Of a DNA stretch of 64,000 nt, positions 1-64,000 are shown in pieces (the first letter of the stretch is position 1; every line of letters starts with the position of its first letter). Origin of the DNA: a plasmid. Both the position numbers and the translations under genes were made by a program. The stretch lies in sequence record NZ_CP082221.1. One strand, written 5' to 3'. A model generated the notes under the pieces. The model ran no database searches. It was given only the letters and a program-made list of their open reading frames with translations, and had not been told where the DNA came from.

Positions 1-6
1 TTTTTC

Positions 7-36
7 TTGCAAAAAAGTATGTTTTAGTAGTATAAT
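7..36 (+). promoter_or_regulatory. sigma70-like promoter of parA (-35 TTGCAA 7-12, -10 TATAAT 31-36)
   Basis: TTGCAA-18bp-TATAAT is read directly. The same 'agtatgttttagtagtataat' recurs at 63817-63839 upstream of the gene starting at 63871. Confidence 0.45.
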
Positions 37-43
37 TTATTCA

Positions 44-90
44 GAAATCGGATAGGCTGATTTCAAAATTGAGCAGAAATGCTTGGAGTA
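44..90 (+). promoter_or_regulatory. 5' leader module: stem-loop A (44-64, GAAATCGGATAGGCTGATTTC) plus hairpin-SD B (71-90, GAGCAGAAATGCTTGGAG) preceding parA
   Basis: Motif A recurs at 13239, 14100, 14937, 17399, 18388 and 18818. Motif B recurs about 30 times in the window. Both stems covary. Confidence 0.55.
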
Positions 91-97
91 AAGAACA

Positions 98-871
98 ATG
101 AAAAAAATCGTAATCACTAACGAAAAGGGTGGGATTGGCAAAACCTCTGTTGCTGTTCATTTGGCACATTACTGTTATGAGCGCGGTATGCGTGTTCTAT
201 TTGTAGACATGGATAAACAAGGTAATAGTGGTTTCTCACTTAGTAAAGTTGCGGTTGAGATTAAAGATACCCATAGTCTATTTGCGGATATCCAAAACTT
301 TGAAACTTTAGATAAATATTTTGTTCTTTTTAAAGGTAATAAGAGTTTAAAATCACTTTTTGATCCTACAGAACAAGAGTTTAAGCTAGATAAAGTTGAA
401 GAATACCAACGTAATTTCAAATCAAATATTGCTAAGGCTAACGAATTTTTTGATATCTGTATTTTTGATACACCTCCTACAGACGGCCCGTTTCAGCGAT
501 TACCTTTGTTAGTTTCTGAATTTGCTCTATCTCCTTTTTTATTGGATAAATATTCAATTCTAGGGCTAAGAGGTATTATTGATACCACACAAGAAATTAA
601 AGAAGTAAACCCAAAAATTCAGTTTCTAGGGCTGCTTCCAAATATGGTTAGTGCTAACTCTGTTACTCAAAAAACAACTTTAAATGAATTGCAGAAACAA
701 CTGAGTCATTTAATGCTTGATAAGACTGCTTTCATACCTAATCGATCTGCAATTGCTGATGCAAGTGAACAACAAGTTCCAGTATGGAAAATTGATAAAA
801 CGTCAGCAAAAGATGTAGGGCGAAAAATCAAAAAAATTAATCAATTAGTTTTAGAGAAAATGGGGGTTTAA
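98..871 (+). CDS. parA: ParA/Soj-family partition ATPase
   Basis: Deviant Walker A KGGIGKT near the N-terminus, about 257 aa. Immediately followed by parB. Confidence 0.9.
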   Translation: MKKIVITNEKGGIGKTSVAVHLAHYCYERGMRVLFVDMDKQGNSGFSLSKVAVEIKDTHSLFADIQNFETLDKYFVLFKGNKSLKSLFDPTEQEFKLDKVEEYQRNFKSNIAKANEFFDICIFDTPPTDGPFQRLPLLVSEFALSPFLLDKYSILGLRGIIDTTQEIKEVNPKIQFLGLLPNMVSANSVTQKTTLNELQKQLSHLMLDKTAFIPNRSAIADASEQQVPVWKIDKTSAKDVGRKIKKINQLVLEKMGV

Positions 872-874
872 GCT

Positions 875-2131
875 ATGTCTTCTTTATTAGGTGATTTAAA
901 CGCTGTTGATAGCTCATTAACTTCAGCAAACTTAAATGCTAACAATAACTCTGACCGCACAATTCTAAAATTGCCGCTTAATCGGGTTAAGTTGGATCCT
1001 CAGAATGTACGTCTTGAATATGATCAAGATTATGTAAAAGAACTGGCAAATACTATTTTGAGAGATGGTTTACTTCAGCCTATTTCAGTTAGAGCCGATT
1101 CTGATAATCCTGGTGAATATATTATTAATATGGGCCATTATCGTTATTTAGCTCATAAACATTTGAACTTGGATACTATCGAAGCAACGATTGATAACAA
1201 ACTTGGTTCACGCCGAGTAAAAATGTCAGAAAACTTATTTAGAAAAGACATGAGTTTGCTTGAAGTTGCTACGAATTTAAAATTGATGCTAGAAGAAGGC
1301 GTGGCAGAGAATCCAAAGTATAGTTATGACGATTTAGCTAATGAAATTAATAAGTCAAAGACATGGGTTTCTCGAAGATTACAATTGCTTGAATCAGATG
1401 ATTATCTAAAAAGCCTTATGGCTAATAAAATGGTAAATGATGCTGAAACTGGCACGATCATTAAAAACTTATTAGCTGAGTATCCAGAAGAAGTAAAAGC
1501 GTTAGTAGCAGATCATGAAGGTGCTATTTCATCAAAATTAGCCCGTGTATGGTCTAAAGAGCTGAAGGGTGAAATTATTACCTCAAGCACTTCAGAGGTA
1601 ACACAGTCATCTTTAGAACTTCAGAATTCGCCAAAGGCTGGTGAAAAAGATGAAGATAGTAAAGTGGACAATACTCAAGAGCTCATTACCGAAACTAAAG
1701 AGACTTTACAGCAACCTGCAAAAGTTCAAGAATCGGTTGAAAATACTGAAGCAGTGAAAGATGAAAAATCTTTTACGACTACTACTCAAAAGCAAACAAA
1801 AGAGATTGTAAAACAAGCAAATGAAAAGGCATTTTCAGAGCTTGAGACAGCTTATTTTAATGGTATTTTGGAAAGTTACGTCAGTATTTTAGATTTAACA
1901 GAAAGCGAAGATGAAGACTTAGTATCAGTAGCTTGTGGCTTTTTAAGAAGCTTTAATGATGAAAATACAGCTAATTTGTTTTCGTGGAAAAGCTTAATTC
2001 AATATCCAGTACTAGTTAATGAGTTGGCGACTATTTTAGATTCTATGGCGCAATTACATGTATTTGTTCCATCTTCTAATGTTGAAGACTCTCGTATGCA
2101 AGTTATTTTAAATCAACAAGACCTTATTTAA
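875..2131 (+). CDS. parB: ParB-family partition protein
   Basis: N-terminal ParB/Srx domain (LLQPISVR...GEYIINMGHYRYLA), an HTH region and an acidic C-terminal part. Sits downstream of parA. Confidence 0.85.
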   Translation: MSSLLGDLNAVDSSLTSANLNANNNSDRTILKLPLNRVKLDPQNVRLEYDQDYVKELANTILRDGLLQPISVRADSDNPGEYIINMGHYRYLAHKHLNLDTIEATIDNKLGSRRVKMSENLFRKDMSLLEVATNLKLMLEEGVAENPKYSYDDLANEINKSKTWVSRRLQLLESDDYLKSLMANKMVNDAETGTIIKNLLAEYPEEVKALVADHEGAISSKLARVWSKELKGEIITSSTSEVTQSSLELQNSPKAGEKDEDSKVDNTQELITETKETLQQPAKVQESVENTEAVKDEKSFTTTTQKQTKEIVKQANEKAFSELETAYFNGILESYVSILDLTESEDEDLVSVACGFLRSFNDENTANLFSWKSLIQYPVLVNELATILDSMAQLHVFVPSSNVEDSRMQVILNQQDLI

Positions 2132-2266: not shown

Positions 2267-3496
2267 ATGAATATTAATTTTAATACTGAAGAATTCCTTG
2301 CTACAGCAAAACAGGCTACACACTCACCAGCTTTGTTCCATAAGAAGTCTATGCATAGTCCAATCTATGCAGAAATCCAATTTGATATACCGTTAAACTA
2401 TATAAGCTCTAAAACTGTAAGCTTGCGTAAAAATTGTTTTAAGGAATTAAATTGTGCAACGTTTAAGGGTATTCCTGATCTAGTTGATTCTAAAGTTAAG
2501 CAGGTTTCAATTCCACTTAAAGACTTAGGGCCGGTTGCAATCACACCGATGCCAGCAATTGGGATTTACTATGAGCTTAATAAGCGAAATAAAGACTATG
2601 GGAATGCACTTTTAGAAGTAACAGTTGAAGATCGAGAAAGATCCTTTTCTGATTACAATGAGTTAATTGAGATTTCACAGGGAAAAATTAATAGCTTTAA
2701 TACACCTGAAATTACTTTAAGACCTATTGAATTTAGTAAATCAAAACTACCTGATGATGAGTTTTGTTTAACTGTTTTTATTGATGATGCTAATTTAAGC
2801 AGTAATTTAATAGCAACAGGTTTACCAAGTGTCACATCTATTGCGAGCTTCTTTAATTATGTTGAATTAAAGACAGGCCAAAAAGTTGATTTTGCGATTG
2901 GAATTTCTGGTACTGAAAAAAATCAAAATGTCTCAGTGCGTGAGAAAGTAATTAAATATCCAAGAACACGTACAAACGTAGGTGTCGGCCAAGTTGATCA
3001 GAGCAATGGAAAATTAGCTCTACATTTAATTATTAGCTGTGAGAGTCCAAGTGCTGCCAATCAAGTACGAAATTATATACTTAATGAAGATATACGCATT
3101 GCAACTGGACTTGTTTATCAGAAATCAATTTGTGATTTTGTACCAGAAAATACCTATTGGTTATATGAGGCGGATCCAAAAACAGTAGATGACGATTTAA
3201 GAAACCGTTATGTATCCGGTTTTCCTGTATTTCAACCAGATACTTTAGATTATGCAATGCAATTGTATGGAACAAACATAGTTGATAGTAGACATAAATA
3301 TACCGTTACTTCAAACGGTTATGCACTATTAAATACACCTACATTCTCAGCTTATTCAAGAAGTGAAACAAAACTTCACTGCTATGCAGAAATACTTTAC
3401 GCAGTTTGTTATTTAAGTGAAGAGTACTTGCCGGACAACTTATTTTGGAAAAAGAAAGAAGTACCTGGGCAGTTGGTTTATTGGTCATCTTTATAA
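2267..3496 (+). CDS. hypothetical protein (409 aa)
   Basis: Long ORF with a GAGGA SD. Preceded by a motif-B hairpin and a 17-codon mini-ORF (2212-2265). Confidence 0.6.
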   Translation: MNINFNTEEFLATAKQATHSPALFHKKSMHSPIYAEIQFDIPLNYISSKTVSLRKNCFKELNCATFKGIPDLVDSKVKQVSIPLKDLGPVAITPMPAIGIYYELNKRNKDYGNALLEVTVEDRERSFSDYNELIEISQGKINSFNTPEITLRPIEFSKSKLPDDEFCLTVFIDDANLSSNLIATGLPSVTSIASFFNYVELKTGQKVDFAIGISGTEKNQNVSVREKVIKYPRTRTNVGVGQVDQSNGKLALHLIISCESPSAANQVRNYILNEDIRIATGLVYQKSICDFVPENTYWLYEADPKTVDDDLRNRYVSGFPVFQPDTLDYAMQLYGTNIVDSRHKYTVTSNGYALLNTPTFSAYSRSETKLHCYAEILYAVCYLSEEYLPDNLFWKKKEVPGQLVYWSSL

Positions 3497-3782
3497 GTAG
3501 TGATTAAAAAATGGTTAAATGGGTTAGTGCCTGGTTCTTGGTTATTAATATTTTCTCTCCGAATAAACATGCTGTTTATACGATACCGTTCCAATCAGAA
3601 CAAGAGTGTAAAAAAGAAGTACTTAAGCGTTTAAAACATGATGCTGGTAACGAAATTATTAGCGTTAAGTTTGGTTCAGAGGTAAAAGAGCGAAGATCCT
3701 ATAGCTGTGAAAAAGGACAATTACCCGTATATCCGGTTAAATAAAATATGTTGAAAGTAGAGCTGCAAAGCTTGAGGTGTTT

Positions 3783-4055
3783 ATGAAAAAACTTGCCAAA
3801 ATCCTTCGGTTCTCGATCGGAGTTTTAATCGTCCTACTTGCATACGCTGCTTTAATATTTTTCATTAGGTATATATGGGACGAAGTAGTATTTAGAAATA
3901 TTATTCTAATAATACTTAGCTTTGGACTTTATTTTATATCTTTGATTTATGGTGATGATGATGATAGTACAATCTCTTTGCTTCTTCTAATTTCTACCAT
4001 TGCAATGGTTCTCTTTACAACGTTTAATCTTTTTCTTCAGTTAATAAACTGGTGA
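3783..4055 (+). CDS. small membrane protein (about 90 aa, 2-3 TM)
   Basis: Motif B GAGCTGCAAAGCTTGAGGTG lies 6 nt upstream of ATG 3783. Hydrophobic. Confidence 0.5.
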   Translation: MKKLAKILRFSIGVLIVLLAYAALIFFIRYIWDEVVFRNIILIILSFGLYFISLIYGDDDDSTISLLLLISTIAMVLFTTFNLFLQLINW

Positions 4056-4090
4056 GTAATTGCGAGTCGTAAGACTTAAGGAGTTTTAAA

Positions 4091-5194
4091 ATGCTAAATA
4101 ATGAATTAACAACACAAGTATTTTCAATTGAAAATGAAATGGAAAAACTTGATCTTGATATTGATAGAAAAGATGAAGTTTTAGCAATAGTTGAAAACTT
4201 AGATCTAATTAAGAACCCACAAAAGGTACTTGAGTTGGGGGCTAATAACCGTGATTCGTTAGCTGATCTTTCTAACCAAATGCTGTCATTAGTTACTAAT
4301 GATCAGTTGGGAGTTATGGGAGAATTAATGACGGATATTACTGTAAAATTAAAAAGAACAGACTTTTCCATTGGTAGTGATAAATCAAATATACCGTTGA
4401 TAGGGGGGCTGTTAGCAAAAATTGGTAATTCAAAAGACAGGCTTATTACTAAATTTAAGACAGTAGAATCACAATTAAATGATAATTTATTGCAAGTAGC
4501 AGAAGCTCAAAAAGGGTTGCAATTAAATAATGATAGCTTGACGAAATTATTTGAGCATACAATTTCTGTTTATACTCAACTAGGTTTTGCTGTCATAGCT
4601 GGTCGATATAAAAAAAATGAGCTTATTGGCTTGATTGAGTCACTTAACAGTGAAGGTACAGATCTAGCAAAGCAAAGAGCAAATGCATATTCACAAATCT
4701 TAGAGCGTTTAGATAAGCGTATTACGGATCTAGAATTGTTGAGATTAAGTGCCTTACAAACGTTGCCTCAGATTACTTTTTTGCAGAACAATAATATTGC
4801 GTTAATTGAAAAGTTCCAAACTATATCTGGCTTAACTATTCCAGCCTGGCAAAGACAATTAATGTTGGCCTTGAATATTTTAGATCAAAAGAAATACTCA
4901 CAATTAGGTGAGGAAATTGATAATTTCACAAATGAAACACTTCTAGAAAGCGCGAAAGATTTTAAAGAAACTTCAATTCATATTGCAAAACAAAGCAACC
5001 GCCAAGTTATAGATATTGAGACACTTCAGAAGGTGCAGCTTGATACATTAACTGCTTTTGAAGAAGTTATGGCAATCAACAAAACTTCAGCTCAGAAGCG
5101 AAAAGAAACACAATTACAGGCACAACAATTAAATGATCAGCTCAAAAGCCTGGTCGTTGCGGATCCGCAACAATTAAAAATCAGTGCAGATTAA
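4091..5194 (+). CDS. coiled-coil protein, possibly TelA/KlaB-like (toxic-anion-resistance family)
   Basis: 367 aa and alpha-helical, preceded by a motif-B leader. The family assignment is from memory of TelA architecture and is not verified. Carries one palindrome site in frame (ADPQ) at the C-terminus. Confidence 0.5.
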   Translation: MLNNELTTQVFSIENEMEKLDLDIDRKDEVLAIVENLDLIKNPQKVLELGANNRDSLADLSNQMLSLVTNDQLGVMGELMTDITVKLKRTDFSIGSDKSNIPLIGGLLAKIGNSKDRLITKFKTVESQLNDNLLQVAEAQKGLQLNNDSLTKLFEHTISVYTQLGFAVIAGRYKKNELIGLIESLNSEGTDLAKQRANAYSQILERLDKRITDLELLRLSALQTLPQITFLQNNNIALIEKFQTISGLTIPAWQRQLMLALNILDQKKYSQLGEEIDNFTNETLLESAKDFKETSIHIAKQSNRQVIDIETLQKVQLDTLTAFEEVMAINKTSAQKRKETQLQAQQLNDQLKSLVVADPQQLKISAD

Positions 5195-6487: not shown

Positions 6488-6591
6488 GGATTAATTTTTA
6501 AATAAAATGATTAAAATATAATCCGATATATTGTATTATTGGTACTGAAAGTATTAATAGATTGATGAGCTGAAAAGCTTAAGGTGTTCTC

Positions 6592-6849
6592 ATGAAAAGT
6601 GAACTACATTGCTTTGAAAATAAAATAGCTACTATTTTTATAATAGCTATTTTTCTCTTCTTTATATTTGTTTTCATTAAACATTTTGATCATATCCAAG
6701 CAGCTTTATGGCCTAAAGTTAGTGCTCAAGGTGAGCCATGCTTATATAAAACAGTAGGTTATATAACTTCTCCGAAAGACGGTACATCAACTGAAATAAA
6801 AGGTTGGGTATGCCCTTCAAATAATAGTCAAATTTTAAAAAAGAGGTAG
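6592..6849 (+). CDS. small membrane/secreted protein (85 aa)
   Basis: Motif B GAGCTGAAAAGCTTAAGGTG directly upstream. N-terminal TM. Contains Cys. Confidence 0.55.
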   Translation: MKSELHCFENKIATIFIIAIFLFFIFVFIKHFDHIQAALWPKVSAQGEPCLYKTVGYITSPKDGTSTEIKGWVCPSNNSQILKKR

Positions 6850-8227: not shown

Positions 8228-8266
8228 TTGAATTATTTAACGAGCCGAAGGGCTTATGGAGAGGTT

Positions 8267-8776
8267 ATGAATAAATCTAAATTTAGCTATGCTGTTGACT
8301 TCAATAATGAAATTGTTGGAACTTTATCTGCTAAAGAATACTTCAGTATTGTAAAGAAGGCTTATACGGATTTAGTTTTTTTAAAAAAACATGTTTGGCC
8401 ATTAGTGATGCATTTTCTGAATGCTTTTAGTAAATGCCTTGAACTCCTTCCTGCTTTTTTCATCATGGGTATTCTATGTTGCTCAATTATGATTCCCTTT
8501 GATGATATCCAGAAAATTGTTGGTGCGTTAGAAAGCGCATCAAATCATGAACGTTATGCTTATTTAGGGCAATTAGCGGAAATCACTTTTCAGATACTCT
8601 TTTTTGTTGCTGCAATTGACACTTTAAGATTCTTAACAACATCTGACGGGAATAATTATGTGAGAAGTTATTTTGGACTTGAGGCTTTAAAAGTATTGAA
8701 TATTTCCGAAAACATAATTGATAGATCCCAGGATACTTTGGCTCAAATTGTTATTAGGCCAAATAAAAAAATTTAA
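8267..8776 (+). CDS. membrane protein (169 aa)
   Basis: Motif B GAGCCGAAGGGCTTATGGAG ends 6 nt before ATG 8267. The track start 8228 lies inside the leader. Confidence 0.55.
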   Translation: MNKSKFSYAVDFNNEIVGTLSAKEYFSIVKKAYTDLVFLKKHVWPLVMHFLNAFSKCLELLPAFFIMGILCCSIMIPFDDIQKIVGALESASNHERYAYLGQLAEITFQILFFVAAIDTLRFLTTSDGNNYVRSYFGLEALKVLNISENIIDRSQDTLAQIVIRPNKKI

Positions 8777-8857
8777 TGTTCAGCTTTAAATAAGTCTTAT
8801 CAGTCTAGATAGGACTTAATTTTCATACTGGAGCTCTAAGGCTTAAGGTGTAGATAT

Positions 8858-9370
8858 ATGAAATCTAATTTTATGAGCATTCACAGTTTGATTCTTAAGA
8901 GCTCATTCTTAAGCTTTAGCTTATTACTTGTTGGATGCAACTTTCCGTTGGGCGCTAAGCCTTATGAACCTTTCGAGTATGTACTTGGTGAAAAAATTAT
9001 TAGGTCCTTAAAGGAATGTTCAACCGACATACAAAAGATTTTAAAAATTTGCAGCCCAGCAGCATCAAAGCAACAGATCAGTCAGGCCATTTCAAAATGC
9101 CCGGATGTGAAATTTGAGTTTGAAAAAATACTAACCCCTAGTGTTGTATTGAGAGAGGTTAAACCGGCTCAAGTTTTAACTGTTAATAAGCTAAACAGCT
9201 TATTAAACGAATGCATGAAAAAAGCAAAGCCTAATTTACCGGATGAAAAAGATAAGGTGATAGCTGCACAACTTAGCGTTATAGCTGAAGCAAAATACAA
9301 AGACATAATCCAAGACAAAAAGATTCATGGTGATGAAAATCTAATGTTTGAAGAAGATAATGCTGAATAA
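8858..9370 (+). CDS. lipoprotein (lipobox LLVGC)
   Basis: Motif B upstream. Signal peptide plus Cys at the lipobox position. Confidence 0.6.
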   Translation: MKSNFMSIHSLILKSSFLSFSLLLVGCNFPLGAKPYEPFEYVLGEKIIRSLKECSTDIQKILKICSPAASKQQISQAISKCPDVKFEFEKILTPSVVLREVKPAQVLTVNKLNSLLNECMKKAKPNLPDEKDKVIAAQLSVIAEAKYKDIIQDKKIHGDENLMFEEDNAE

Positions 9371-9425
9371 TTATCTATTTTTTAGTAAAGAAAATTGAAG
9401 AGCCGAAGGGCTTATGGAGTTAGCT

Positions 9426-9755
9426 ATGTTTGATGAAGATATTAGACCACTTATGATAGCGGTTTATGCACTTTTTATTATGTTTCTTCTATATTTAATG
9501 GCTGGTGTGGTTTTAACAGGCATTAATAATATCAAACCCAAAAAAGATCAGTACGGCCAGTCCTGTCATAAAGTAGGTATTTTCACAGATTGGACATGTC
9601 CTTCAGATACTGAGCAATATAAACAACTGAAAAAAGAAGGCTGTAAACTTGTCACTGTTATTGAGCCAAAAGAAACAGATTATATAAAACAGTATCGATA
9701 TATGTGTCGGGAAAATAAAGAATATATTCTAAATTTTGAATATAAAGGTTTGTAA
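9426..9755 (+). CDS. small membrane protein
   Basis: Motif B GAGCCGAAGGGCTTATGGAG. The real ATG is 9426 (track 9414 is the SD ATGGAG). Two conserved Cys pairs. Confidence 0.5.
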   Translation: MFDEDIRPLMIAVYALFIMFLLYLMAGVVLTGINNIKPKKDQYGQSCHKVGIFTDWTCPSDTEQYKQLKKEGCKLVTVIEPKETDYIKQYRYMCRENKEYILNFEYKGL

Positions 9756-9791
9756 GTTTTTTCAATGAGCTTAATAGCTTGAGGAGTTCAC

Positions 9792-10520
9792 ATGAATATC
9801 AAGACAAATTCAATGGCACCAGAAAATGATCAGAAGCCAAATACTGAAGATTTTTTTCTTCAGTATCAAAATTCAAAAATTGTTCAAGATGATAATTTTC
9901 TAAAGCAACGATATGCGGATTATGAACAATTATTCAATAACGCAGTTCAGTACACACCAATTTCAGAAAGTAATTTTCTTTTTTTGCAAAAGAGAATGCG
10001 GATTTATGGCTTAATTTTAATAGTCTGTATTGCATTAAATGCCATCATTACATTTTGTATTATTTATAAATTATTCTTTCAAGATTATTACACATCTATA
10101 GGTATGAGTGAGCAATTTAAGACTTTATTTGCTGGAACATTCAGTTGGGCTCTTGAGGTAGGCATTGTCTCATTTGTTTTGGCTATGCTATTTAAAGATA
10201 AACTTAGAACACTTTATTTAAAATATTCAATACGAAATGACTATTTAGAAGAAGTAGTTAACTACACATTTACACCAGTAATCCCGCAAGACTTTGAAAA
10301 AATCAAAGATTTTTCAACGTTAGACTCACAGTTAAAAGAAAAGATCCTTGAAGTAACTGAATATAGGAATGGGAAATTGCTTGATATTGATTTTAAAGAG
10401 TTAAATATTGAGTCAATTCTTAATTGTAGAGCTGAGATTAATCACGTTCTGAAAAATCATTTAGATTATGAGGAAAAAACTCAAAGCATCTTAGAAAGTA
10501 TTAAATCTGATAAGGTTTAA
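9792..10520 (+). CDS. membrane protein (242 aa)
   Basis: Motif B variant GAGCTTAATAGCTTGAGGAG upstream. Two TM. Confidence 0.55.
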   Translation: MNIKTNSMAPENDQKPNTEDFFLQYQNSKIVQDDNFLKQRYADYEQLFNNAVQYTPISESNFLFLQKRMRIYGLILIVCIALNAIITFCIIYKLFFQDYYTSIGMSEQFKTLFAGTFSWALEVGIVSFVLAMLFKDKLRTLYLKYSIRNDYLEEVVNYTFTPVIPQDFEKIKDFSTLDSQLKEKILEVTEYRNGKLLDIDFKELNIESILNCRAEINHVLKNHLDYEEKTQSILESIKSDKV

Positions 10521-10524
10521 GAGC

Positions 10525-10710
10525 ATGAATACTAATAAGATAATGTTTTGTATTTGTCTGTTCGTTCTTGGCCTAGTAACACTATTCTCCATTTGGCTAG
10601 GCTATACAATCGTAATCCAGGCATCAACAGGCGCGGTTCCTTATCCGGGAAGAATGGTAATTATATTAATTATCCTGGGCGCTATAACCATGTTCCTTTT
10701 AAAGGGTTAA
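10525..10710 (+). CDS. small 2-TM peptide (61 aa)
   Basis: Starts 5 nt after the 9792 gene stop. Hydrophobic. Confidence 0.45.
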   Translation: MNTNKIMFCICLFVLGLVTLFSIWLGYTIVIQASTGAVPYPGRMVIILIILGAITMFLLKG

Positions 10711-10754
10711 AGAAATACAAATTTTACTGAGCTGAAGAGCTTAAGGTGATACTG

Positions 10755-11308
10755 ATGAAAAATATCCCTCTAATATTTGCCCTGGTATTAGCTTTATCCG
10801 GGTGCATGAGTGACGAAGATTTTGCTTTTGCAAAAGAAGAAATTGTAGAAAAACTATCAATACGTACCTTCAAGATCAATATTCGATGATTGTAATAAGC
10901 GACATAAAAAATGTAACTCCATCGATATATAGTACTTGTAGTAAATATTTGAATATTAATAAAAGGATGATCAAGAAACAGAGGGTTAAATTATCTATCA
11001 GAAGTATCGAGTCTGAATATGTTTTAGATAAAGATGTGAATATTAATGATCTCAAATCATGTGTTGACGATTATTTGGTAAAAACCCCAATTTCAGAAGA
11101 GTCAATGAAAAATCTGAAAGAGGATACAAGAGTTGAGCAATTCAAAAATGATCCTGAAGTACGTTCGTTAATTGATAACGCTAAAGCTGATCATTTAATC
11201 AGCTATTATGAATACCAGACAATACTTGGACTAGTGTTGAAGAAACATTACGACCATGAAATTGATTTGGGTAAAGCTGCATACCAACATGACTTTCAAA
11301 GTCTTTAA
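10755..11308 (+). pseudogene. frameshifted lipoprotein gene, paralog of the 11358 gene (signal-peptide part 10755-10889, remainder 10886-11308)
   Basis: Motif-B leader then MKNIPLIFALVLALSGC. The reading frame switches (-1) at the A5 run around 10846-10852. Both halves align to the 11358 paralog (KEEIVEK / INTYLQDQYS ... LKSCVDDYL). Confidence 0.45.
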
Positions 11309-11357
11309 AAGTAGCTTATCAGAGCATTAAAGAGCTGAAGAGCTTTAGGAGAATTTG

Positions 11358-11894
11358 ATGAAAAAACTAGCTGTAATGATCGCCATTGCTTCGATATTAT
11401 CTGGTTGTATGACAAAAGATAGTCTTAATACCTTAAAAAAATTGGTTGTAGAAAAAGAAATAAAAGATTATGTAGCAAGCAATTATCCGATTGAGTCGCT
11501 AGAAATTGATCAATTAAGTTCAGAAATTTACGATAATTGCATGGATGTAATTAATATCAGTCAACTTTCGCTTGTTAAAATTGAATTAAATAAGGAAACA
11601 AGGTATGTCTTGAAATCAAGTGTAGATACACAACCATTAAAAAAATGTGTAGATAATTATTTAGCAAAAAAACCTGTCTCAAACGATGCAATGGAAGCTC
11701 TAATTTCGAATCCTTATTATGAAAAATACAAGAATGAACCTGACGTAAGAGAAATAATTAATAAAGCAAAGATAGACAATCTTATAACCTATCATGAGCA
11801 AAAGGAAATACTTGATTTAGTTAGAAATAAACGTCTCAATCAAGCTCTAGCCGAAAACAAAATTTGGTATCAGAAACAAATTCATGATCTTTAG
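11358..11894 (+). CDS. lipoprotein (ILSGC lipobox), intact paralog of 10755/10886
   Basis: Motif B GAGCTGAAGAGCTTTAGGAG upstream. Signal peptide plus lipobox. Confidence 0.6.
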   Translation: MKKLAVMIAIASILSGCMTKDSLNTLKKLVVEKEIKDYVASNYPIESLEIDQLSSEIYDNCMDVINISQLSLVKIELNKETRYVLKSSVDTQPLKKCVDNYLAKKPVSNDAMEALISNPYYEKYKNEPDVREIINKAKIDNLITYHEQKEILDLVRNKRLNQALAENKIWYQKQIHDL

Positions 11895-11951: not shown

Positions 11952-12374
11952 GGCGTTCCCTACGGGCCGGGCTAGTTGGCTTCGCTCGAACTCCAAGCGA
12001 AAAAGAGGATCCATCGAGTTTAAAATCTAGTTTCATGCAAAGCCTGAACCTGATTTTAATACTCGATTCAAATCCTCTTTTTTTACGCTTGTATTTCGCC
12101 CCTTACGGGCAACATCCCTAACGCAGCATGATCGGATGCTGTTTATCTTTAAAATTGAATCTAGGGGCAATTAGAGCGATTTAGAGGGCTATTTGTCGCA
12201 ACCCTGCGGGATTGCTTTGTTATTACCGGATAAGGTCCAATGGGAGAAGTTTCACTTCTTCGGTCGTCTAGTCAAAATCACAGATTTTGACTGACTCGCT
12301 CGAAGTTTGAAACGGTAATCAAGGAGGGGGATGCTCGCAAATTTCATCAGTTCGCAACGTGGACACGTTGCTCT
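11952..12374. repeat. 423-bp GC-rich noncoding repeat element, copy 1
   Basis: Near-identical to 16890-17310, with a 3-bp indel. About 48% GC versus about 33% for the flanks. Multiple perfect hairpins (GTCAAAATCacagGATTTTGAC, GCAACGTGgaCACGTTGC). Confidence 0.8.
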
Positions 12375-13166: not shown

Positions 13167-13289
13167 TATGTTTAAGTATTTGTTTATATTGCGTTAATAA
13201 ATTTGTAAGTGGTCGAGAATGTGTTATAATTTAAAGGTGAAATCGGATAGGCTGGTTTCAAATGAGCAGAAATGCTTAAGGTGAATATT

Positions 13290-13856
13290 ATGAAAAAAGC
13301 AACTCTTATAACTAACAATCTAGGCCATCTAGTTTGTTCAGACTCACTAATTTTCAAGTCCAAACTTACAGGCAAAACAATTTACTTATCACCCTCTCAT
13401 TTATCGGCACGAATTTTTGAAAAAAACTCAAAAAAGCTAAAATGGGAATATTTTAATTGCTGGTCTGATGGGCTGAATCTGGTAAAAGAAATATTTAATA
13501 AAGAGCTTATAGAAAAAGAGAAAACTACCGCATTCAAAGAAAAACTTATTCCAGGTTCAATTCTTGTTTCTAGCTGGGGATCAGAACAAACAAACGTAAG
13601 TTTTTATCAAGTAATTTCATCTACTGCAAAGACTGTAACACTTCGGGAGATTGAAAAATATCGTTTTGAAGAAGACATGAGAGGATGGGTTACTCCAAAA
13701 CCGAATGAATTTATAGGGCCAGCATTTAGAAAGAAAATAGAGTCTGAATATGTTCAGATTGGAAATCGTGAAATTGCTAGATTATTAAAATTTACGGTCA
13801 TAGATGAAACTGGAACAAAAGTTTATGAGCGTCAAAAATTCACTAGCTACGCTTAA
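13290..13856 (+). CDS. hypothetical protein (188 aa)
   Basis: Full cassette: -10 TATAAT 13225-13230, motif A 13239-13259, motif B 13265-13284, ATG 13290. Confidence 0.55.
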   Translation: MKKATLITNNLGHLVCSDSLIFKSKLTGKTIYLSPSHLSARIFEKNSKKLKWEYFNCWSDGLNLVKEIFNKELIEKEKTTAFKEKLIPGSILVSSWGSEQTNVSFYQVISSTAKTVTLREIEKYRFEEDMRGWVTPKPNEFIGPAFRKKIESEYVQIGNREIARLLKFTVIDETGTKVYERQKFTSYA

Positions 13857-13904
13857 GACATATATTTTAGCCGTTGCGGATCCGCAACGGCTACGGAGGT
13901 AAAT

Positions 13905-14087
13905 ATGGACCGCGAACACTTCATGGATTTTTTCAGAAATGATGAAAAACTTGAACAACTAACACCAGATGATCGGATAGAAATTTTTTTGAACGTTTTA
14001 CTAGGCAGTAGTGATATAGATGTAAAACTTCTAAATGAACTTTTAAACAATTATGATATTAGAAATATCGTAATTAGTGAAAAATAA
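13905..14087 (+). CDS. small hypothetical protein (60 aa)
   Basis: GGAGG SD 7 nt upstream. Preceded by the extended palindrome 13870-13891. Confidence 0.4.
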   Translation: MDREHFMDFFRNDEKLEQLTPDDRIEIFLNVLLGSSDIDVKLLNELLNNYDIRNIVISEK

Positions 14088-14153
14088 TCAAATATGAATG
14101 AATCGGATAGGCTGATTCTATTAATATTGAGCTGATAAGCTTAAGGTGAGTTA

Positions 14154-14852
14154 ATGAAATACTTTATAGCAAATTTATATTTTTATACCCGTAAAGAGCT
14201 TCTAGCAATTGCTGATGGAAAAGATGAGCTTGTTGATTTTCTAGATAGAATAAAAGGTTCTGAGTTAGAAAGCGCGAAACTTACAAGTGCAGAACGTGCA
14301 TTTTTGAATGTTTATCAATCTGCTGTGTCAAATACTTTGGAGATGATGAACATTGATGTATCTACATCTAGCTGGATGATTGGCAATGGTTTTTACGTCC
14401 CTTCTATGGTTGAAGATTATAACAAAACAAATATTTCTATTTTAGAAGTAGTACTGTTTTGTAATATCACAGCATTAAAAACATTGATCAAAACTGATAC
14501 TGCAATAATCGAAACAAGGTTTGTTGAGTTTCTAATTAAGTACGTTGAAAAAATAGAATCGGTACATTGCTCAGATGATAAAATTTTTAAATTAGAACTA
14601 GGAAATAAGTATGAGTTTGAGTTACATCAGGAAGGATACATTTTCGTAGAAAGAATTTCAGATGATGAAATTTTTAATGAACAATTTCTAGATTCAGAAA
14701 TTTTGATAAGTTTGCTGTATGCGAAAGAAAATGAGAATGAGATTATTCCAGTAGGTACTTTTCACAGTGTCTCAGGGGTATATGATGCACTTGATTTTAA
14801 AAGTGCTATTAAACCTCTTTTACCAGATATTGAGTTGCTGGCATCTTTCTAA
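14154..14852 (+). CDS. hypothetical protein (232 aa), paralog of the 15441 gene
   Basis: Motif A (14100-14118) and motif B upstream. Aligns with 15441 (GNGFYVPS.../NGFFFPVN...; ELGNKYEFELHQEGYIF/IGNKLEFDLQTEGYVF). Confidence 0.6.
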   Translation: MKYFIANLYFYTRKELLAIADGKDELVDFLDRIKGSELESAKLTSAERAFLNVYQSAVSNTLEMMNIDVSTSSWMIGNGFYVPSMVEDYNKTNISILEVVLFCNITALKTLIKTDTAIIETRFVEFLIKYVEKIESVHCSDDKIFKLELGNKYEFELHQEGYIFVERISDDEIFNEQFLDSEILISLLYAKENENEIIPVGTFHSVSGVYDALDFKSAIKPLLPDIELLASF

Positions 14853-14854
14853 AC

Positions 14855-14884
14855 AAACGGGCAATAATGCCCGTTTTTTTTTTA
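14855..14884 (+). terminator. rho-independent terminator AAACGGGCAataaTGCCCGTTT + T10
   Basis: Perfect stem plus a long T-run. Confidence 0.65.
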
Positions 14885-14990
14885 AATTAAATTTATATTA
14901 AAACAAAAATATGTTTTTGATGTATAATAATTAAAGGAAGTTGGATAGGCTAACTTCAAAATTTGAGCTGAAAAGCTTATGGTGATTAAT

Positions 14991-15374
14991 ATGAAAGACA
15001 ATAATCTAAAAGATTTATTCCAGTTCCTCTTAAACCATAAAAAACTCATCCAGTGTGGGATTACAGTTAGTCAGGGCAGCTACTCAATTACCGATCTTAA
15101 TGAAGGTGTTTGTGTTTTGGTTGAACGAAATGTTCCATTCAAAGAATATTTATCTTTTCTAGAAATTATGGATAAATGGCCTGAGAAAAATAATGATCAA
15201 GGTTATACAGTTAGAATTGAAGGCGAGGATCCCTCAGAGATATACCTTGACTATTATGAGAATAACAAAAACATGTATGGCAATTGTTCATATGGCAAGA
15301 AACGATGGGATCTGATTTTATTTGTCTATCAAGAACTATTGGAAGCAAAGGAAGTCAGCTATTTAGAGGCTTGA
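14991..15374 (+). CDS. hypothetical protein (127 aa)
   Basis: Cassette: TATAAT 14923-14928, covarying motif A GAAGTTGGATAGGCTAACTTC 14937-14957, motif B, ATG 14991. Confidence 0.55.
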   Translation: MKDNNLKDLFQFLLNHKKLIQCGITVSQGSYSITDLNEGVCVLVERNVPFKEYLSFLEIMDKWPEKNNDQGYTVRIEGEDPSEIYLDYYENNKNMYGNCSYGKKRWDLILFVYQELLEAKEVSYLEA

Positions 15375-15440
15375 ATAAAGCAAAAGCAAAACCCTTTTTG
15401 AAACTTTTTAACATGAGCTGAAGAGCTTAAGGTGGCATAA

Positions 15441-16199: not shown

Positions 16200-16250
16200 A
16201 CTTAAGGGGCTTCCCAACGGAGGCCCTATTTATTTAACAAAGGTGAAAGT

Positions 16251-18298: not shown

Positions 18299-18310
18299 CT
18301 ATTTTCTACA

Positions 18311-47146: not shown

Positions 47147-48574
47147 ATGAAAATTAAAGCATTAATTATAGGTGTTCTATTTGGTATTACGGTTTCTGCA
47201 AATGCCGATCCAGCCTCAATGCAAGAAGTTTTTGACCAAATAAATGCGCGTGGAAATGTTACTCAGCCAACCGCAATCCAGGGCCAGACTATGAATTATA
47301 TGACAGGTGGGAGTTTGTTTATGCGAACTCCCAACACCACATATAATCTAGCTGCTATTACCCCTCCTTCAGCTAATGCTGGTTGTGGCGGCATTGACTT
47401 GTATATGGGTGGCTTCAGCTTTGTAAATAAAGAACAATTTGTAGCCATGCTAAAAAATATCGGCTCAAATGCATTGGGATATGGCTTTAAATTAGCTTTA
47501 CAAAATTTATGTCCGACTTGCGATAACGTTCTGCAAGCTCTTCAATCTGCCTCTCAACAAATTAATAGAATGAACATTGATTCGTGTGAGGCAGCGAAAG
47601 GGATTGTTAATGCAGCAACTTCTACTGTTGCATTGCGTGGACGCGAACAATCTTCAATGAATTTTGGAACAATAAAAAATATCTTCAGTGATATGACAGA
47701 AGCATGGACCAAGAATAAGGGAAATTCACAACAAACAAATCAAACTTTAGATAATTTATCTAATCAAGATCCAAATATGAAAAATCATATACCGGATGGT
47801 AACTTGACTTGGAAAGCATTATCAAAAATTTCAGCATTACCTACAGACCAAAAATACTTAATCATGGCAATGGTGGGTACAGTAGTTATAACTGAAGATC
47901 CAACCAATGGAACGCCTAAAATAGTCGCTTATCCGCGAAGAATCGATAATATTTCTACACTCATTGGTACTAGTGCAAGTTCACAAGCACAATTTCCAGT
48001 TTGGCGTTGTGTCGATGGTACACGTGAAGATGAATGTACATCTCTTGTTCAAGACAACTTAACAACTAATGAAACATTCTATTCGCTAGTAGATGAAAAG
48101 ATGAGATTACTAGCGGATGCTATTTCGCAACGTCGCCCAATTACTGATGCTGGTGGAATCATTCAATTCATCAATTTAACAGATATTCCGATCTATAAAA
48201 TCATAGCACTGAATACTCGATATGGTGGTGATAGTACTGCTGCAATGATGGCCTTAGACCAGTACAAAGAACTGATAGCAGCAAAATATGCTCTTGCGTA
48301 CTTTGAAATAACTTCAAAGATGGTTGAAGCTGCTTTAGGCAATATTATTGCTGGAACGGCTGATGCTGTAACTGCTCAAGAAGTTACTAAGATTAGAGAA
48401 ACCTTAGATAAAACAAGAGCAGACTTGAACCAAAGCACGCAAGTTGCTTACGCACGTTCCAATGTCTCATTTAATATCGCCCAGGAAGTTCAGCATATGG
48501 AGCGAACTTTACATTCAAATTTAGCTCCAGCTTTAAGACAGTCAATTGTCTTCGCTAACACATTAGATAAATAA
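47147..48574 (+). CDS. traH: TraH
   Basis: 475 aa with a signal peptide and a motif-B leader. Confidence 0.6.
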   Translation: MKIKALIIGVLFGITVSANADPASMQEVFDQINARGNVTQPTAIQGQTMNYMTGGSLFMRTPNTTYNLAAITPPSANAGCGGIDLYMGGFSFVNKEQFVAMLKNIGSNALGYGFKLALQNLCPTCDNVLQALQSASQQINRMNIDSCEAAKGIVNAATSTVALRGREQSSMNFGTIKNIFSDMTEAWTKNKGNSQQTNQTLDNLSNQDPNMKNHIPDGNLTWKALSKISALPTDQKYLIMAMVGTVVITEDPTNGTPKIVAYPRRIDNISTLIGTSASSQAQFPVWRCVDGTREDECTSLVQDNLTTNETFYSLVDEKMRLLADAISQRRPITDAGGIIQFINLTDIPIYKIIALNTRYGGDSTAAMMALDQYKELIAAKYALAYFEITSKMVEAALGNIIAGTADAVTAQEVTKIRETLDKTRADLNQSTQVAYARSNVSFNIAQEVQHMERTLHSNLAPALRQSIVFANTLDK

Positions 48575-57216: not shown

Positions 57217-57882
57217 TTATTGTTTGAAGTCATATTTAATTTGTAAAAAATCATCGAACGTTATACGGATATTATTCCAATATTCATTAATTTCTTGGTT
57301 TTCAATGTTTTCCAGAAAATACTCAACTCGATCAAGAAATACTTCAGTATCTTTCTGTATTGTTTTGAAAATAGTAATAACTCGAATAGTATCAGACTTA
57401 TACTTCATCAATTCAAAGTAGCAATGTATTAAATCGCTTATAAATCTGTCATTTAGAGATTTTAACTGAATTATGGAGCTATTTTTTTGCGCTTTAAGGT
57501 TATGTTCTGATATCAATGATTTGATTTTAGATAAATCTTTCAATTGATTCGGATCTATGGATTTAAGAAAGTCTGTTATTGCATTAATTGGCCGCTTCCA
57601 AAAATAAAAATTCTTTCTTTGTCTTGCAGCGATCACAAAAAGTTCTTTTATGGTTGACGGAATATTATCATTTGAAAGTAATTCCATTGCGCCCGGGATA
57701 AATCTTAATGCACTGGGCTTCCGTAATTCTTCAAAATAAAGTCTTTGGTAAGTGTCATCAATTTGATAAAAGAACTCATTCTTTATTGGTCCTTCAATAT
57801 AGGACAATAATGTATAAGAAGAGGTAGCATTTAGATGAACAACTTCACGGATATAACTTTCAACTCTATCTGAGATTTGCAT
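57217..57882 (-). CDS. hypothetical protein (221 aa)
   Basis: Motif B GAGCCTCACGGCTTCAGGAG (rc of 57892-57911) upstream. Confidence 0.5.
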   Translation of the reverse strand: MQISDRVESYIREVVHLNATSSYTLLSYIEGPIKNEFFYQIDDTYQRLYFEELRKPSALRFIPGAMELLSNDNIPSTIKELFVIAARQRKNFYFWKRPINAITDFLKSIDPNQLKDLSKIKSLISEHNLKAQKNSSIIQLKSLNDRFISDLIHCYFELMKYKSDTIRVITIFKTIQKDTEVFLDRVEYFLENIENQEINEYWNNIRITFDDFLQIKYDFKQ

Positions 57883-57923
57883 TATTGACTCCTGAAGCCG
57901 TGAGGCTCAAAAATGTGTTTTGG

Positions 57924-62801: not shown

Positions 62802-63291
62802 GGGTTTATATGATGTATTTCTCGAAACTTGTGTACCAAAAAATTCTCCCCAATATCCAGAGCTTCAGAAAATCGGTGATGATTTTCTAAATAAAGTCGT
62901 GATGGAGGACCCTGATTATCATAATAGTCAGGTCTTCACTATTTTGAGTCAAGTAGCTGTTCCCGAAATTCAAAATAGACTTAAACGTCTTGAGTCCAAA
63001 GCAAAAAATAAAGATTTTGAAAAAAATTATTTTGATTGGAATTATATTGAGAGAGGGGTTGTTCAAGAAAGAAAGGACTTTATTAATGCTATCCATCTAA
63101 AGCAAATATATGAAAAAACAAAAAAACTTTATGAAGCTCAGAATGGTGAAGAGCTTACAAGTAGTATATATGCAGATCTCTTGAACGCGAATCCTCAAAA
63201 TCTCAGAAGAATGCTTACACATAAAAGAGAAATTGATACTCGTCTATTAGAAGAGGCAAAAAAGTGTCTTGAAAAACTTTCTACTAAATAA
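62767..63291 (+). CDS. hypothetical protein
   Basis: Overlaps the upstream gene by 35 nt. The start is uncertain. Confidence 0.45.
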   Translation: MSSYSIQIGQVKGLYDVFLETCVPKNSPQYPELQKIGDDFLNKVVMEDPDYHNSQVFTILSQVAVPEIQNRLKRLESKAKNKDFEKNYFDWNYIERGVVQERKDFINAIHLKQIYEKTKKLYEAQNGEELTSSIYADLLNANPQNLRRMLTHKREIDTRLLEEAKKCLEKLSTK

Positions 63292-63336
63292 TTTTTTTTG
63301 GTATGATTTACTCGTATGATTTAGATTAGAAATATC

Positions 63337-63717
63337 ATGGTTGATGAAACTCGTTATATTCCGGTTAAAGTTTTAAGACAGGGCAATATTTATTATTTAA
63401 ATTGCGAAGCGTTTGATATTGTAGAAAAATCAAGCAATTTACTACATTGTATTGAACAAATGAAAAACAGGATTATCGAAAAAGTGGTCGCTCTGCACCA
63501 TGCTGGAGAAAAATTACCAGTATTTGATCTTTACAAAAGTTTAAAAAGTGGCGGGATTTTATTAGAAATTCCGAGTAGTTGCTTTGATGATACATTAGAA
63601 AGAGTTACTTTAACTTTACCTAAGAGTGTTATTACTGGAATTGATGCCGTTTCTCCAAATAGAAGCGCAAAGTTTACACAATTGGCTAAAGAATTTATTG
63701 ACGGAGATAATAAGTAA
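63337..63717 (+). CDS. hypothetical protein (126 aa)
   Basis: ORF followed by the palindrome-terminator. Confidence 0.45.
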   Translation: MVDETRYIPVKVLRQGNIYYLNCEAFDIVEKSSNLLHCIEQMKNRIIEKVVALHHAGEKLPVFDLYKSLKSGGILLEIPSSCFDDTLERVTLTLPKSVITGIDAVSPNRSAKFTQLAKEFIDGDNK

Positions 63718-63719
63718 AA

Positions 63720-63752
63720 GTAGCTGTTGCGGATCCGCAACAGTTATTTTTT
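63720..63752 (+). terminator. CTGTTGCGGATCCGCAACAG hairpin + T8 (scattered palindrome doubling as terminator)
   Basis: 20-bp perfect palindrome followed by TTATTTTTTTTG. Confidence 0.5.
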
Positions 63753-63870
63753 TTGTTTAAATATACAGAACCGTCTGTTAGTATAGCTAAATAATAAACA
63801 GTTTGTTTTAAGTATGTTTTAGTAGTATAATCTACGCAATTAATGAGCAGAAATGCTTAAGGAGTTCAAG

Positions 63871-64000
63871 ATGGTAGAAACCATTCAATTTCTAGCTTTC
63901 CCAGATAATATCCTAAATTTTAAAAGTCACTTAGACTTTGAAACCCTCATTCTTAATTTGCCTGAAAAAATAGTTCAGGACTTAGATCAGAGTATTGCGA
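63871..64000 (+). CDS. 5' part of a gene running off the window
   Basis: parA-like promoter (63817-63839) plus motif B GAGCAGAAATGCTTAAGGAG, then ATG 63871. Confidence 0.4.
   Translation, partial: MVETIQFLAFPDNILNFKSHLDFETLILNLPEKIVQDLDQSIA

Follow-up and report, generated by a model that had tools for sequence, protein, structure and literature searches.

The operator of phage T4 gp43 consists of a hairpin and the adjacent Shine-Dalgarno (SD) sequence, which form a single autoregulatory site recognised via the loop, whereas the T4 RegA regulon covers about 30 early mRNAs through sites that are unstructured. The stabiliser in the 5' untranslated region (5' UTR) of ompA begins with a 5'-terminal hairpin, which is followed by an A/U-rich segment and by another hairpin beside the ribosome-binding site. 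The KorA/KorB regulon of IncP-1 plasmids coordinates the genes of partition, transfer, and establishment through one short, reused motif, and its operators are palindromes in double-stranded DNA through which transcription is controlled. The lambdoid boxB has a conserved pentaloop read by the N protein, has boxA as its partner, and occurs at one or two sites per genome. In T4-type phages, the PeSL cassettes place a sigma-70-type promoter, a stem-loop, and an SD sequence before small open reading frames (ORFs) of unknown function in variable regions, and these repeats are alike enough to recombine (PMC2839356, PMC4122927). This study concerns a 20-nt unit of hairpin and SD sequence, termed motif B or hairpin B, and a companion leader hairpin, termed hairpin A. 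Both are repeated in a 64,000-nt stretch of plasmid DNA (record NZ_CP082221.1; hereafter the window), which belongs to a RepAci6-type conjugative plasmid of Acinetobacter baumannii of the same family as pACICU2, pA85-3, and p1AB5075.

Motif B has the form G-A-G-C-Y-[4-nt loop]-R-G-C-U-U-A-W-G-G-W-G and is present in 29 copies in the window. The pattern GAGCN6GCTT occurs there 29 times, against 1.46 expected from dinucleotide-preserving shuffles, the highest of which gave 5. An SD-like hexamer and an ATG adjoin 28 of these 29 matches; the match at 4619 is intragenic, is regarded as a chance match, and is not counted as motif B, and with the variant GAGTCGTAAGACTT at 4064, which precedes the TelA gene, the number of B sites is 29 again. 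A covariance model built from 51 distinct family variants recovered exactly these 29 sites with scores of 18.9–33.7 bits, and the next match in the window scored 12.9 bits. This excess, together with the clean gap in covariance scores, supports the original prediction of a hairpin abutting the SD sequence of about 30 genes. The hairpin lies on the coding strand at all 29 sites (24 on the plus and 5 on the minus strand), the gap between it and the SD hexamer is fixed at zero nt, and an ATG always follows the hexamer by 3–8 nt, mostly 5–7 nt.

About one-third of the genes are headed by motif B, which is found at the 5' ends of transcripts and inside operons. Among the 23 B genes with an upstream gene on the same strand, 13 start merely 33–47 nt beyond that gene. 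As this gap is mostly filled by the hairpin, the SD sequence, and the spacer, there is no room for a promoter. Genes without B mostly overlap or abut the upstream gene, and among the same-strand genes that lie 30–150 nt past their upstream neighbour, 21 carry B versus 11 that do not. Motif B is the usual initiation site of this plasmid family for cistrons without translational coupling, including four sites in the tra operon. That the motif is plasmid-wide, as had been proposed, agrees with its presence in the tra operon, in intergenic gaps too short for a promoter.

The base pairing of the hairpin was evaluated over the 51 distinct 20-mers. Standard pairs occupied 98.8% of stem cells, and sliding the 3' arm by 1–3 columns reduced this value to 7–59%; neither the observed pairing nor the covariation score was matched in 500 shuffles. 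Pair 5:10 was U:A in 22 variants, C:G in 21, U·G in 5, and A:U in 3. In the position-by-position counts, which were based on 74 family instances with distinct flanking sequence, C5 was never found with A10, whereas independent variation of the two positions would give about 15 such cases. Both sides of pair 5:10 also differ between plasmid lineages at at least six orthologous sites, namely those of parA, the J-domain protein gene, orf104, the S26 peptidase gene, the ORF at 63871, and the sister-lineage methylase gene. Elsewhere in the stem, one compensated change was seen at 4:11 (the TelA site of the window) and one at 3:12 (GAACUGAAAGGUUU in the sister-lineage plasmid p2BJAB0868), and in the sister lineage the G·U pair at position 1 is replaced by A-U before parA and before the signal-peptidase gene. 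The stem had been expected to vary in a compensatory way at both 4/11 and 5/10. This stands for 5:10, where nearly all of the covariation lies, whereas 4:11 offers a single case in the window. Likewise, the G described as fixed at position 1 holds for this lineage, but A or U also occurs in the sister lineage. The pairing itself was kept when more variants were aligned.

Since the initial search pattern fixed the outer stem, the search was repeated without any stem-sequence requirement. This stem-blind scan accepted any hairpin of at least four contiguous pairs and a 4-nt loop that abuts NNGGWG and a start codon. It returned 72 SD-abutting hairpins, of which about 64 are members of the B family, whereas shuffled sequences gave 9.3.

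The G·U pairs of the hairpin (G1·U14 in most copies and U5·G10 in five variants) become A·C mismatches on the opposite strand. As these pairs are found on the sense strand only, and as the motif follows gene orientation on both strands of the DNA, the data point to mRNA and argue against double-stranded or transferred single-stranded DNA as the form in which the motif works; a single-stranded DNA promoter or hairpin was rejected on the same orientation. The predicted stability of hairpin B ranges from -2.8 to -6.4 kcal/mol, and in context (60 nt upstream plus 60 nt from the hairpin start) the hairpin forms with a mean probability of 0.85. Taken together, the covariation, the sense-strand G·U pairs, the uniform orientation, and the zero distance to the SD sequence uphold the view that motif B is a selected RNA structure rather than a DNA palindrome, and an RNA hairpin acting at the initiation site is very probable.

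The same evidence bears on the possibility that motif B is an operator in double-stranded DNA, bound by a global repressor of the plasmid similar to KorA/KorB. When an inverted repeat recurs upstream of many genes on a plasmid, it usually serves as a repressor operator, and the window encodes an IncC-like ParA and a ParB (875–2131) with a KorB domain (Pfam). We nevertheless regard such an operator as highly improbable, since the 5:10 correlation excludes two independent degenerate half-sites, the motif lacks symmetry and points the same way as its gene at every site, and it is located at SD sequences, not at promoters, also within the short intra-operon gaps. Moreover, a separate and obvious candidate for a KorB-type site exists. 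The perfect 12-nt palindrome TGCGGATCCGCA, the core of GTTGCGGATCCGCAAC, has 11 copies in the window, where none is expected, and lies both within and between genes (5158, 13875, 16661, 23937, 30888, 32618, 37674, 46990, 53237, 60692, and 63728). Because ParB has a KorB domain and ParA is IncC-like, this palindrome is probably the set of KorB-type operators or parS sites of the plasmid. In p2BJAB0868, several copies of it are situated immediately upstream of B hairpins.

The sequence constraints on motif B are unevenly distributed. The loop takes 20 different sequences, most often GAAA. Of the 29 loops in the window, 13 fit GNRA and another 8 read GAAG, so that describing the loop as very often GNRA was an overstatement. 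In the stem-blind scan, the lower stem was AGC/GCU in about 64 of the 72 hairpins, and the top pair and the loop varied freely. The SD hexamer keeps the register A-W-G-G-W-G, position 15 is A in 68 of 74 instances, and position 21 is hardly ever G. GGUG serves as the SD core in 46% of B genes versus 12% of the other genes of the same plasmid. The constraint on the lower stem and the SD hexamer, which the original prediction missed, points to a specific reader.

The initiation sites with and without B were also compared. The anti-SD pairing energy was -7.4 kcal/mol for B genes versus -6.9 kcal/mol for the others, a difference that was not significant, and compensation of weak SD sequences by B was ruled out by these similar energies. 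AAA was the second codon in 46% of B genes versus 15% of others, and an A/U-rich stretch precedes every hairpin B. In the folding models, the predicted accessibility of the SD sequence was 0.40 with the hairpin intact versus 0.42 with one arm disrupted (p = 0.67), and a role as an "insulator" that exposes the SD sequence was therefore rejected.

Based on the fixed lower stem and SD tail, the free loop and top pair, the zero spacing, and the restriction to one plasmid family before unrelated genes, we tentatively favour the reading that motif B may be a translational operator read by a dedicated sequence-specific factor. According to this reading, a 5-bp stem and 4-nt loop in the mRNA, joined without a gap to a constrained SD sequence (UU-A-W-G-G-W-G), would form a standard 20-nt initiation module. 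A trans-acting reader would bind the lower stem (AGC/GCU) and the SD tail, and would set the access of ribosomes at all tagged cistrons jointly. This reader would most plausibly be an RNA-binding protein of an unrecognised type that is encoded by the family itself. Its existence, its identity, and the direction of control are what we infer from the pattern of constraints. As the tagged sites otherwise look strong, and by analogy with known operators, repression might be expected, by which strong initiation sites would be damped after the establishment of the plasmid; this direction is a guess. The presence of the module before non-homologous, lineage-specific genes in both plasmid lineages supports a reader.

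A more specific proposal, which we put forward with greater reserve, is that the RepAci6/p2BJAB0868 family might encode a new kind of RNA-binding regulator that would control about 29 operators of partition, transfer, leading-region, and accessory genes. Such a regulator would read B through its lower stem and SD tail, and might also read the invariant loop of hairpin A.

Several results weigh against a dedicated reader. No RNA-binding domain was detected by Pfam in about 70 plasmid ORFs, including some outside the window, and sequence searches found no relative in PDB for four conserved basic ORFs. For orf110, which is conserved and basic, the AlphaFold prediction was unusable (pLDDT 44) and the homologue search was uninformative. 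The B genes also look tuned for efficient initiation (ATG at 29 of 29, AAA enriched, normal SD strength), features that a purely cis-acting strong initiation site would fit as well. Furthermore, consensus copies are lineage-specific (GAGCUGAAAAGCUU here and GAGCCGAAAGGCUU in a metagenome-assembled relative), which, together with the leader repeats of 64–135 nt, shows copy-and-paste or concerted evolution. Concerted evolution could explain part of the sequence uniformity without a reader.

The small J-domain protein (17801–18298) was rejected as a candidate reader, since an unrelated control plasmid without B also has a small DnaJ-like protein. The J-domain protein is 85% identical between the two lineages, and its neighbours are 26–47% identical. 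In the unrelated Acinetobacter plasmid p6411-66.409kb, a small DnaJ-like protein is encoded near the rep and par genes.

The main rival of the operator reading, which we consider possible but doubtful, is a purely cis-acting initiation or stability element without a dedicated factor. In one variant, an RNase E cut in the A/U-rich upstream stretch would leave the hairpin as a protective 5'-terminal stem-loop, following the logic of ompA; in others, the hairpin would stack on the SD/anti-SD helix, or would limit interference from upstream sequence and upstream ribosomes. The preference for uncoupled cistrons seen in the 30–150-nt gaps, the ATG starts and enriched AAA second codons at SD sequences of normal strength, the A/U-rich sequence upstream of every hairpin, the lack of a candidate factor in the Pfam scans, and the resemblance of the leaders with hairpin A to the two hairpins of the ompA 5' UTR are all in line with such an element. 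The equal accessibility of the SD sequence with and without the hairpin gives no support to the version in which the SD sequence is exposed, however, and stacking on the anti-SD helix suits only the GGAG register, which is found at about 45% of sites. A role of structure alone also leaves the near-fixed AGC/GCU stem and the AWGGWG register unexplained, and the element is not used by host chromosomes, phages, or other plasmids.

A pause of RNA polymerase was considered as well. Where a hairpin stabilises a pause, its 5-bp stem is situated about 11–12 nt from the 3' end of the RNA, and start codons are enriched in consensus pauses. In this model, B would lie in the RNA exit channel, with the GG of the SD sequence at about -10/-11 and the UG of AUG at -1/+1, and a pause near the start codon would let a ribosome load and would shield AT-rich genes from Rho. 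The stem length and the enrichment at start codons fit, and the geometry is close, as the hairpin ends 13–16 nt before the U of AUG. This spacing is slightly long and variable, however, and pause hairpins act independently of stem sequence, which leaves the fixed lower stem unexplained; we therefore regard a pause hairpin as quite improbable.

The positions of the 29 sites rest on the pattern search, the covariance model, and a check of strand and start codon. On the plus strand, the first site (71–90; GAGCAGAAATGCTT GGAGTA; 18.9 bits) heads parA (98–871) and follows a hairpin A. The site at 2187–2206 heads a 17-codon upstream ORF (2212–2265) that is coupled to orf409 (2267–3496). This short ORF (MKSLACNMCLITFKSED) has its stop codon 1 nt before the ATG of the conserved orf409, and in sister lineages B lies directly before the orf409 orthologue. 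The next sites head orf90 (3783–4055; B at 3760–3779, loop GCAA), the TelA gene (4091–5194; the variant at 4064–4083, with 4:11 compensated to U:A and a score of 28.3 bits), and orf85 (6592–6849; B at 6567–6586). They are followed by orf169 (8267–8776; B at 8242–8261, 5:10 = C:G), orf170 (8858–9370; B at 8831–8850, with a U·G wobble at 5:10), orf109 (9426–9755; B at 9400–9419), and orf242 (9792–10520; B at 9767–9786, loop UAAU). The site at 10729–10748 heads a 44-codon lipoprotein-like ORF (10755–10889), and that at 11332–11351 heads orf178 (11358–11894). The 44-codon ORF carries the lipoprotein signal LSGC and an apparent frameshift relative to the next ORF (10886–11308), and is probably a broken, frameshifted gene.

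Further downstream on the plus strand, B follows a hairpin A before orf188 (13290–13856; B at 13264–13283, 5:10 = A:U, after a promoter and hairpin A), orf232 (14154–14852; B at 14129–14148), orf127 (14991–15374; B at 14965–14984), orf104 (17451–17765; B at 17427–17446), orf94 (18444–18728; B at 18417–18436), and orf110 (18874–19206; B at 18847–18866). Two further sites in this part of the window head orf252 (15441–16199; B at 15415–15434) and the J-domain protein gene (B at 17775–17794, loop GUAA). The minus-strand sites head orf57 (27807–27980; B at 27987–28006), orf149 (28311–28760; B at 28767–28786), orf65 (28986–29183; B at 29191–29210, loop CAAU), orf219 (29326–29985; B at 29994–30013), and orf221 (57217–57882; B at 57889–57908).

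Back on the plus strand, the gene of an 86-aa lipoprotein in the tra operon (36922–37182) is headed by the site at 36897–36916 (loop UCAC), and that of an S26 signal peptidase resembling the TraF peptidase (41003–41503) by the site at 40978–40997, whose orthologous site in p2BJAB0868 is AAGCUGAAAAGCUU. A second gene named orf109 (46784–47113) follows the site at 46759–46778, 9 nt past the traF stop codon, and traH (47147–48574) follows that at 47122–47141; in p2BJAB0868 too, B stands before traH. The last site (63845–63864) heads a conserved ORF that starts at 63871 and runs off the window; it has no hairpin A and lies 13 nt downstream of a copy of the -10 box of the parA promoter.

These positions bear out the gene names given in the original prediction for parA (71), TelA (4064), the S26 peptidase (40978), traH (47122), and the lipoprotein (36897). 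The coordinates had been placed to within 0–5 nt and are corrected here from 8246 to 8242, from 9395 to 9400, and from 36895 to 36897; for the minus strand, the genes were the right ones, but the numbers given were those of their ATG codons.

The companion hairpin A (GAAAUC-GGAUAGGCU-GAUUUC) has seven copies in the window, all on the plus strand. They lie at 44–64 (7 nt past the -10 box of the parA promoter), 13239–13259 (3' arm GGUUUC, with a U·G wobble), 14100–14118 (a 5-bp outer stem, GAAUC/GAUUC), 14937–14957 (a compensated stem, GAAGUU/AACUUC), 17399–17419, 18388–18408, and 18818–18838. The central nine nt are invariant, and 99.2% of the stem is paired; three pairs show compensated changes, and six variable G·U cells occur besides an invariant G·U pair. 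No Rfam family matched hairpin A. The combination of an invariant loop and a covarying stem indicates a sequence-specific reading of RNA in these leaders.

The order of the elements was the same in all seven leaders: a strong sigma-70-type promoter, hairpin A at 7–8 nt past the -10 box, an A/U spacer of 5–10 nt, and B. Hairpin A, which the original prediction likewise missed, is thus always followed by B and accompanies promoter-proximal B copies, and the predicted transcript start would place hairpin A at the 5' terminus of the mRNA and B beside the SD sequence. Some copies of hairpin A with a U-rich spacer resemble weak terminators. The parA promoter (GTATGTTTTAGTAGTATAAT) at 17–36 is duplicated at 63812–63831, there with B but without hairpin A, so that hairpin A looks insertable into leaders as a module.

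The leaders are mutually 77–83% identical over 64–135 nt, which brings in another explanation, namely that the repeats work mainly as DNA, with leader cassettes as homology patches for gene gain, loss, or swap and the hairpin as an incidental feature or a recombination target. The leaders flank lineage-specific ORFs of unknown function, identical whole leaders are repeated in the metagenome-assembled relative, an extra B-bearing ORF between traF and traH is confined to the window lineage, and the PeSL elements likewise combine promoter, stem-loop, and SD sequence (PMC2839356). On the other hand, 22 of the 29 B sites are outside the promoter-A-B leaders and lack both hairpin A and detectable flanking homology, and 20 nt is too short for RecA-dependent exchange. 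In addition, the pairing is selected, with G·U on the sense strand only, as expected of RNA; two rearrangements relative to p1AB5075 do not end at B; and B is retained at the same backbone genes in both lineages. We therefore regard DNA cassettes as a rather improbable explanation, and cassette shuffling may be a real side-effect of the leader repeats.

Six of the seven hairpin A leaders lie within 13.2–19.4 kb. The small genes with A/B leaders in this region (13290–19416, plus strand) face the gap upstream of the relaxosome, coupling-protein, and relaxase genes (with 19775–20353 listed alongside). We infer that this orientation is as expected of a conjugative leading region, and the genes with A/B leaders may be early establishment or anti-defence genes. 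A direct repeat of 423 bp with 99.5% identity (11952–12374 and 16890–17310) brackets a 4.5-kb segment that contains a RelE/HTH toxin-antitoxin pair and four B-headed genes.

Apart from the genes above, the window (33.5% G+C) encodes a coupling protein, a MOBF relaxase, an F-type tra operon, rep, and a zeta-toxin module, and about 50 of its small ORFs have no Pfam match. In PLSDB, its first 12 kb have matches in 211 plasmids, nearly all conjugative and 210 of them from Acinetobacter; the nearest record is CP099785.1, typed as MOBF/MPF_F with replicon cluster 734. Plasmid pA85-3 (NC_025109) is a member of the RepAci6 group, and p1AB5075, which comes from the model strain AB5075, agrees with the window plasmid in replicon type and gene order.

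The distribution of the motif follows this family. Of 72,556 plasmids, only 230, all of this group, have a match to the 81-nt stretch that comprises the -10 box, hairpin A, and hairpin B; 229 are from Acinetobacter and 229 are conjugative. Plasmid p2BJAB0868, whose TraC is 71% identical to that of the window and whose other backbone proteins are 26–89% identical, also has 29 B sites, and 20 were found in the first 50 kb of p1AB5075. The extension of motif B to related plasmids, on which its earlier description depended, is thus seen in both of these plasmids and in the leader matches. Motif B is absent from the 13.5-kb integron/transposon resistance island of p1AB5075 (25730–39232). This plasmid also lacks the 2.2 kb of window 8442–10687, with four B-headed genes, and the deletion ends inside ORFs and not at B sites; neither of the two rearrangements that separate the two plasmids has an endpoint at B. 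Between the window lineage and that of p2BJAB0868, most B-headed small genes are non-homologous; B is kept at parA, traH, and the S26 peptidase gene, the products of which are 67–84% identical, and the additional B-bearing ORF between traF and traH is found only in the window lineage.

Contigs of a metagenome-assembled genome labelled 'uncultured Clostridiaceae' (CAZNMO0100...) carry parAB and the same A/B leaders, with whole leaders recurring identically. They have a G+C content of 30–33% and about 70% identity to Acinetobacter plasmids, and are likely mis-binned Acinetobacter-type plasmid DNA, a binning error in a public genome. The same leaders were found on seven metagenome contigs. A strict sub-pattern, searched in one genome per species over 185,579 species, returned only the mis-binned contigs and six singletons, which are taken as chance matches, and no match to motif B was found in viral contigs. 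In two unrelated Acinetobacter conjugative plasmids (100 kb in total), the top covariance-model score was 15.7 bits, and no excess of SD-abutting hairpins was detected with loops of 3–6 nt and offsets of 0–3 nt. These two plasmids give no support to B as a general habit of Acinetobacter plasmids. The covariance-model search that had been suggested thus recovered exactly the 29 sites of the window but gave no clear match in the unrelated plasmids. The hairpin is real and under selection; it is a feature of the RNA sense strand, linked to the SD sequence, and specific to this family.

Known classes of RNA elements were compared with both hairpins. Rfam release 15 gave no match in the whole window at gathering thresholds, and in an E-value search of 13200–19300 no match overlapped A or B, with weak matches on terminators. 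The literature searched by sequence, plasmid name, and concept contained no description of motif B. The statement that no such element had been described therefore stands within these searches, and motif B is apparently a cis-regulatory RNA module that has not previously been described.

Among the individual candidates, a CsrA/RsmA site was rejected since GGA is found in no B loop and the SD core GGUG, without GGA, is used at roughly half of the sites; no CsrA gene was found in Pfam scans of the plasmid ORFs. In hairpin A, GGA stands at the 5' edge of the conserved segment, where its bases are paired in RNAfold. An intrinsic terminator does not fit B, which is followed by AWGGWG and never by a U run, and 0 of 29 B sites were found in the terminator scan, in which some copies of hairpin A were flagged. 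An RNA thermometer (fourU/ROSE) or sequestration of the SD sequence was rejected because the SD sequence is not part of the stem and no selected complementarity to it is seen in the 5' flank, a C opposite G17 or G18 being found in just 2–3 of 74 cases. A lambdoid boxB/nut site was rejected on the basis of the 20 tetraloop sequences, the lack of boxA, and the lack of an N-like protein in the Pfam scans, and REP/BIME elements on the basis of the position of all 29 sites 5' of a start codon on the sense strand and the lack of a RAYT-type transposase in the Pfam scans. The target of a plasmid antisense RNA was likewise rejected, as the window holds no independent complement to the A loop or to the 3' arm of B with the SD sequence; the only matches were one-mismatch matches within coding regions. 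Because the sequence does not fit them, several further candidates were set aside: boxA/boxB antitermination, a sigma-54 promoter, RNase P or RNase III substrates, an MqsR GCU site, and an integron attC site.

Plasmids of the RepAci6 family spread OXA-23 carbapenem resistance and aminoglycoside resistance among clinical A. baumannii. About two-thirds of the genes on these plasmids, and all of their regulation, are uncharacterised, and one 20-nt RNA module before one-third of the genes offers a handle on the expression of establishment, partition, and transfer functions. A dedicated reader, should there be one, would represent a rare case of plasmid-wide translational control and a possible attack point on plasmid maintenance. 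If that reader is a new regulator, the model strain AB5075 would carry it, and it would parallel the IncP kor regulon at the post-transcriptional level. These possibilities are directly testable, since p1AB5075 of the widely used AB5075 has at least 20 copies of B; a p1AB5075-free derivative of AB5075 exists (PMC13405486). The hairpin–SD unit might also be useful as a compact, portable initiation module for the engineering of Acinetobacter.

Compared with the systems described at the outset, motif B shares features with each and also differs from each. Like the lambdoid boxB/nut, it has a 5-bp stem and a loop of the G-A-A-A type in leader RNA; unlike boxB, it has a variable tetraloop, no boxA, and 29 sites that are each tied to an SD sequence. 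Like the IncP-1 kor regulon, one short motif is reused over a conjugative plasmid, here also with an IncC-like ParA and a KorB-domain ParB, but B is a strand-specific RNA hairpin at the SD sequence, and a separate palindrome fits the Kor role. The seven promoter-A-B leaders resemble PeSL cassettes as repeated units of 64–135 nt before lineage-specific ORFs. In PeSL elements, however, G/C-rich terminators lie within or before the promoter, whereas A and B lie downstream of it, in the 5' UTR, and B is joined to the SD sequence, mostly without any promoter. With the ompA 5' UTR, the leaders share the order of a predicted 5'-terminal hairpin (A), an A/U spacer of 5–10 nt, B, and the SD sequence; the ompA leader is single, gene-specific, and without a sequence family, whereas B is also found alone in operons and is conserved before unrelated genes.

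There is also a resemblance to the translational operators of phage T4. Like the gp43 operator, motif B places a short hairpin directly 5' of the SD sequence as one recognition unit, and like the RegA regulon, many cistrons of one replicon share a signal at the initiation site, as would suit joint post-transcriptional control. Motif B differs from both in being conserved in the lower stem and in its number of sites, about 29. Its architecture and sequence constraints are compatible with a protein-bound translational operator of the gp43/RegA type.

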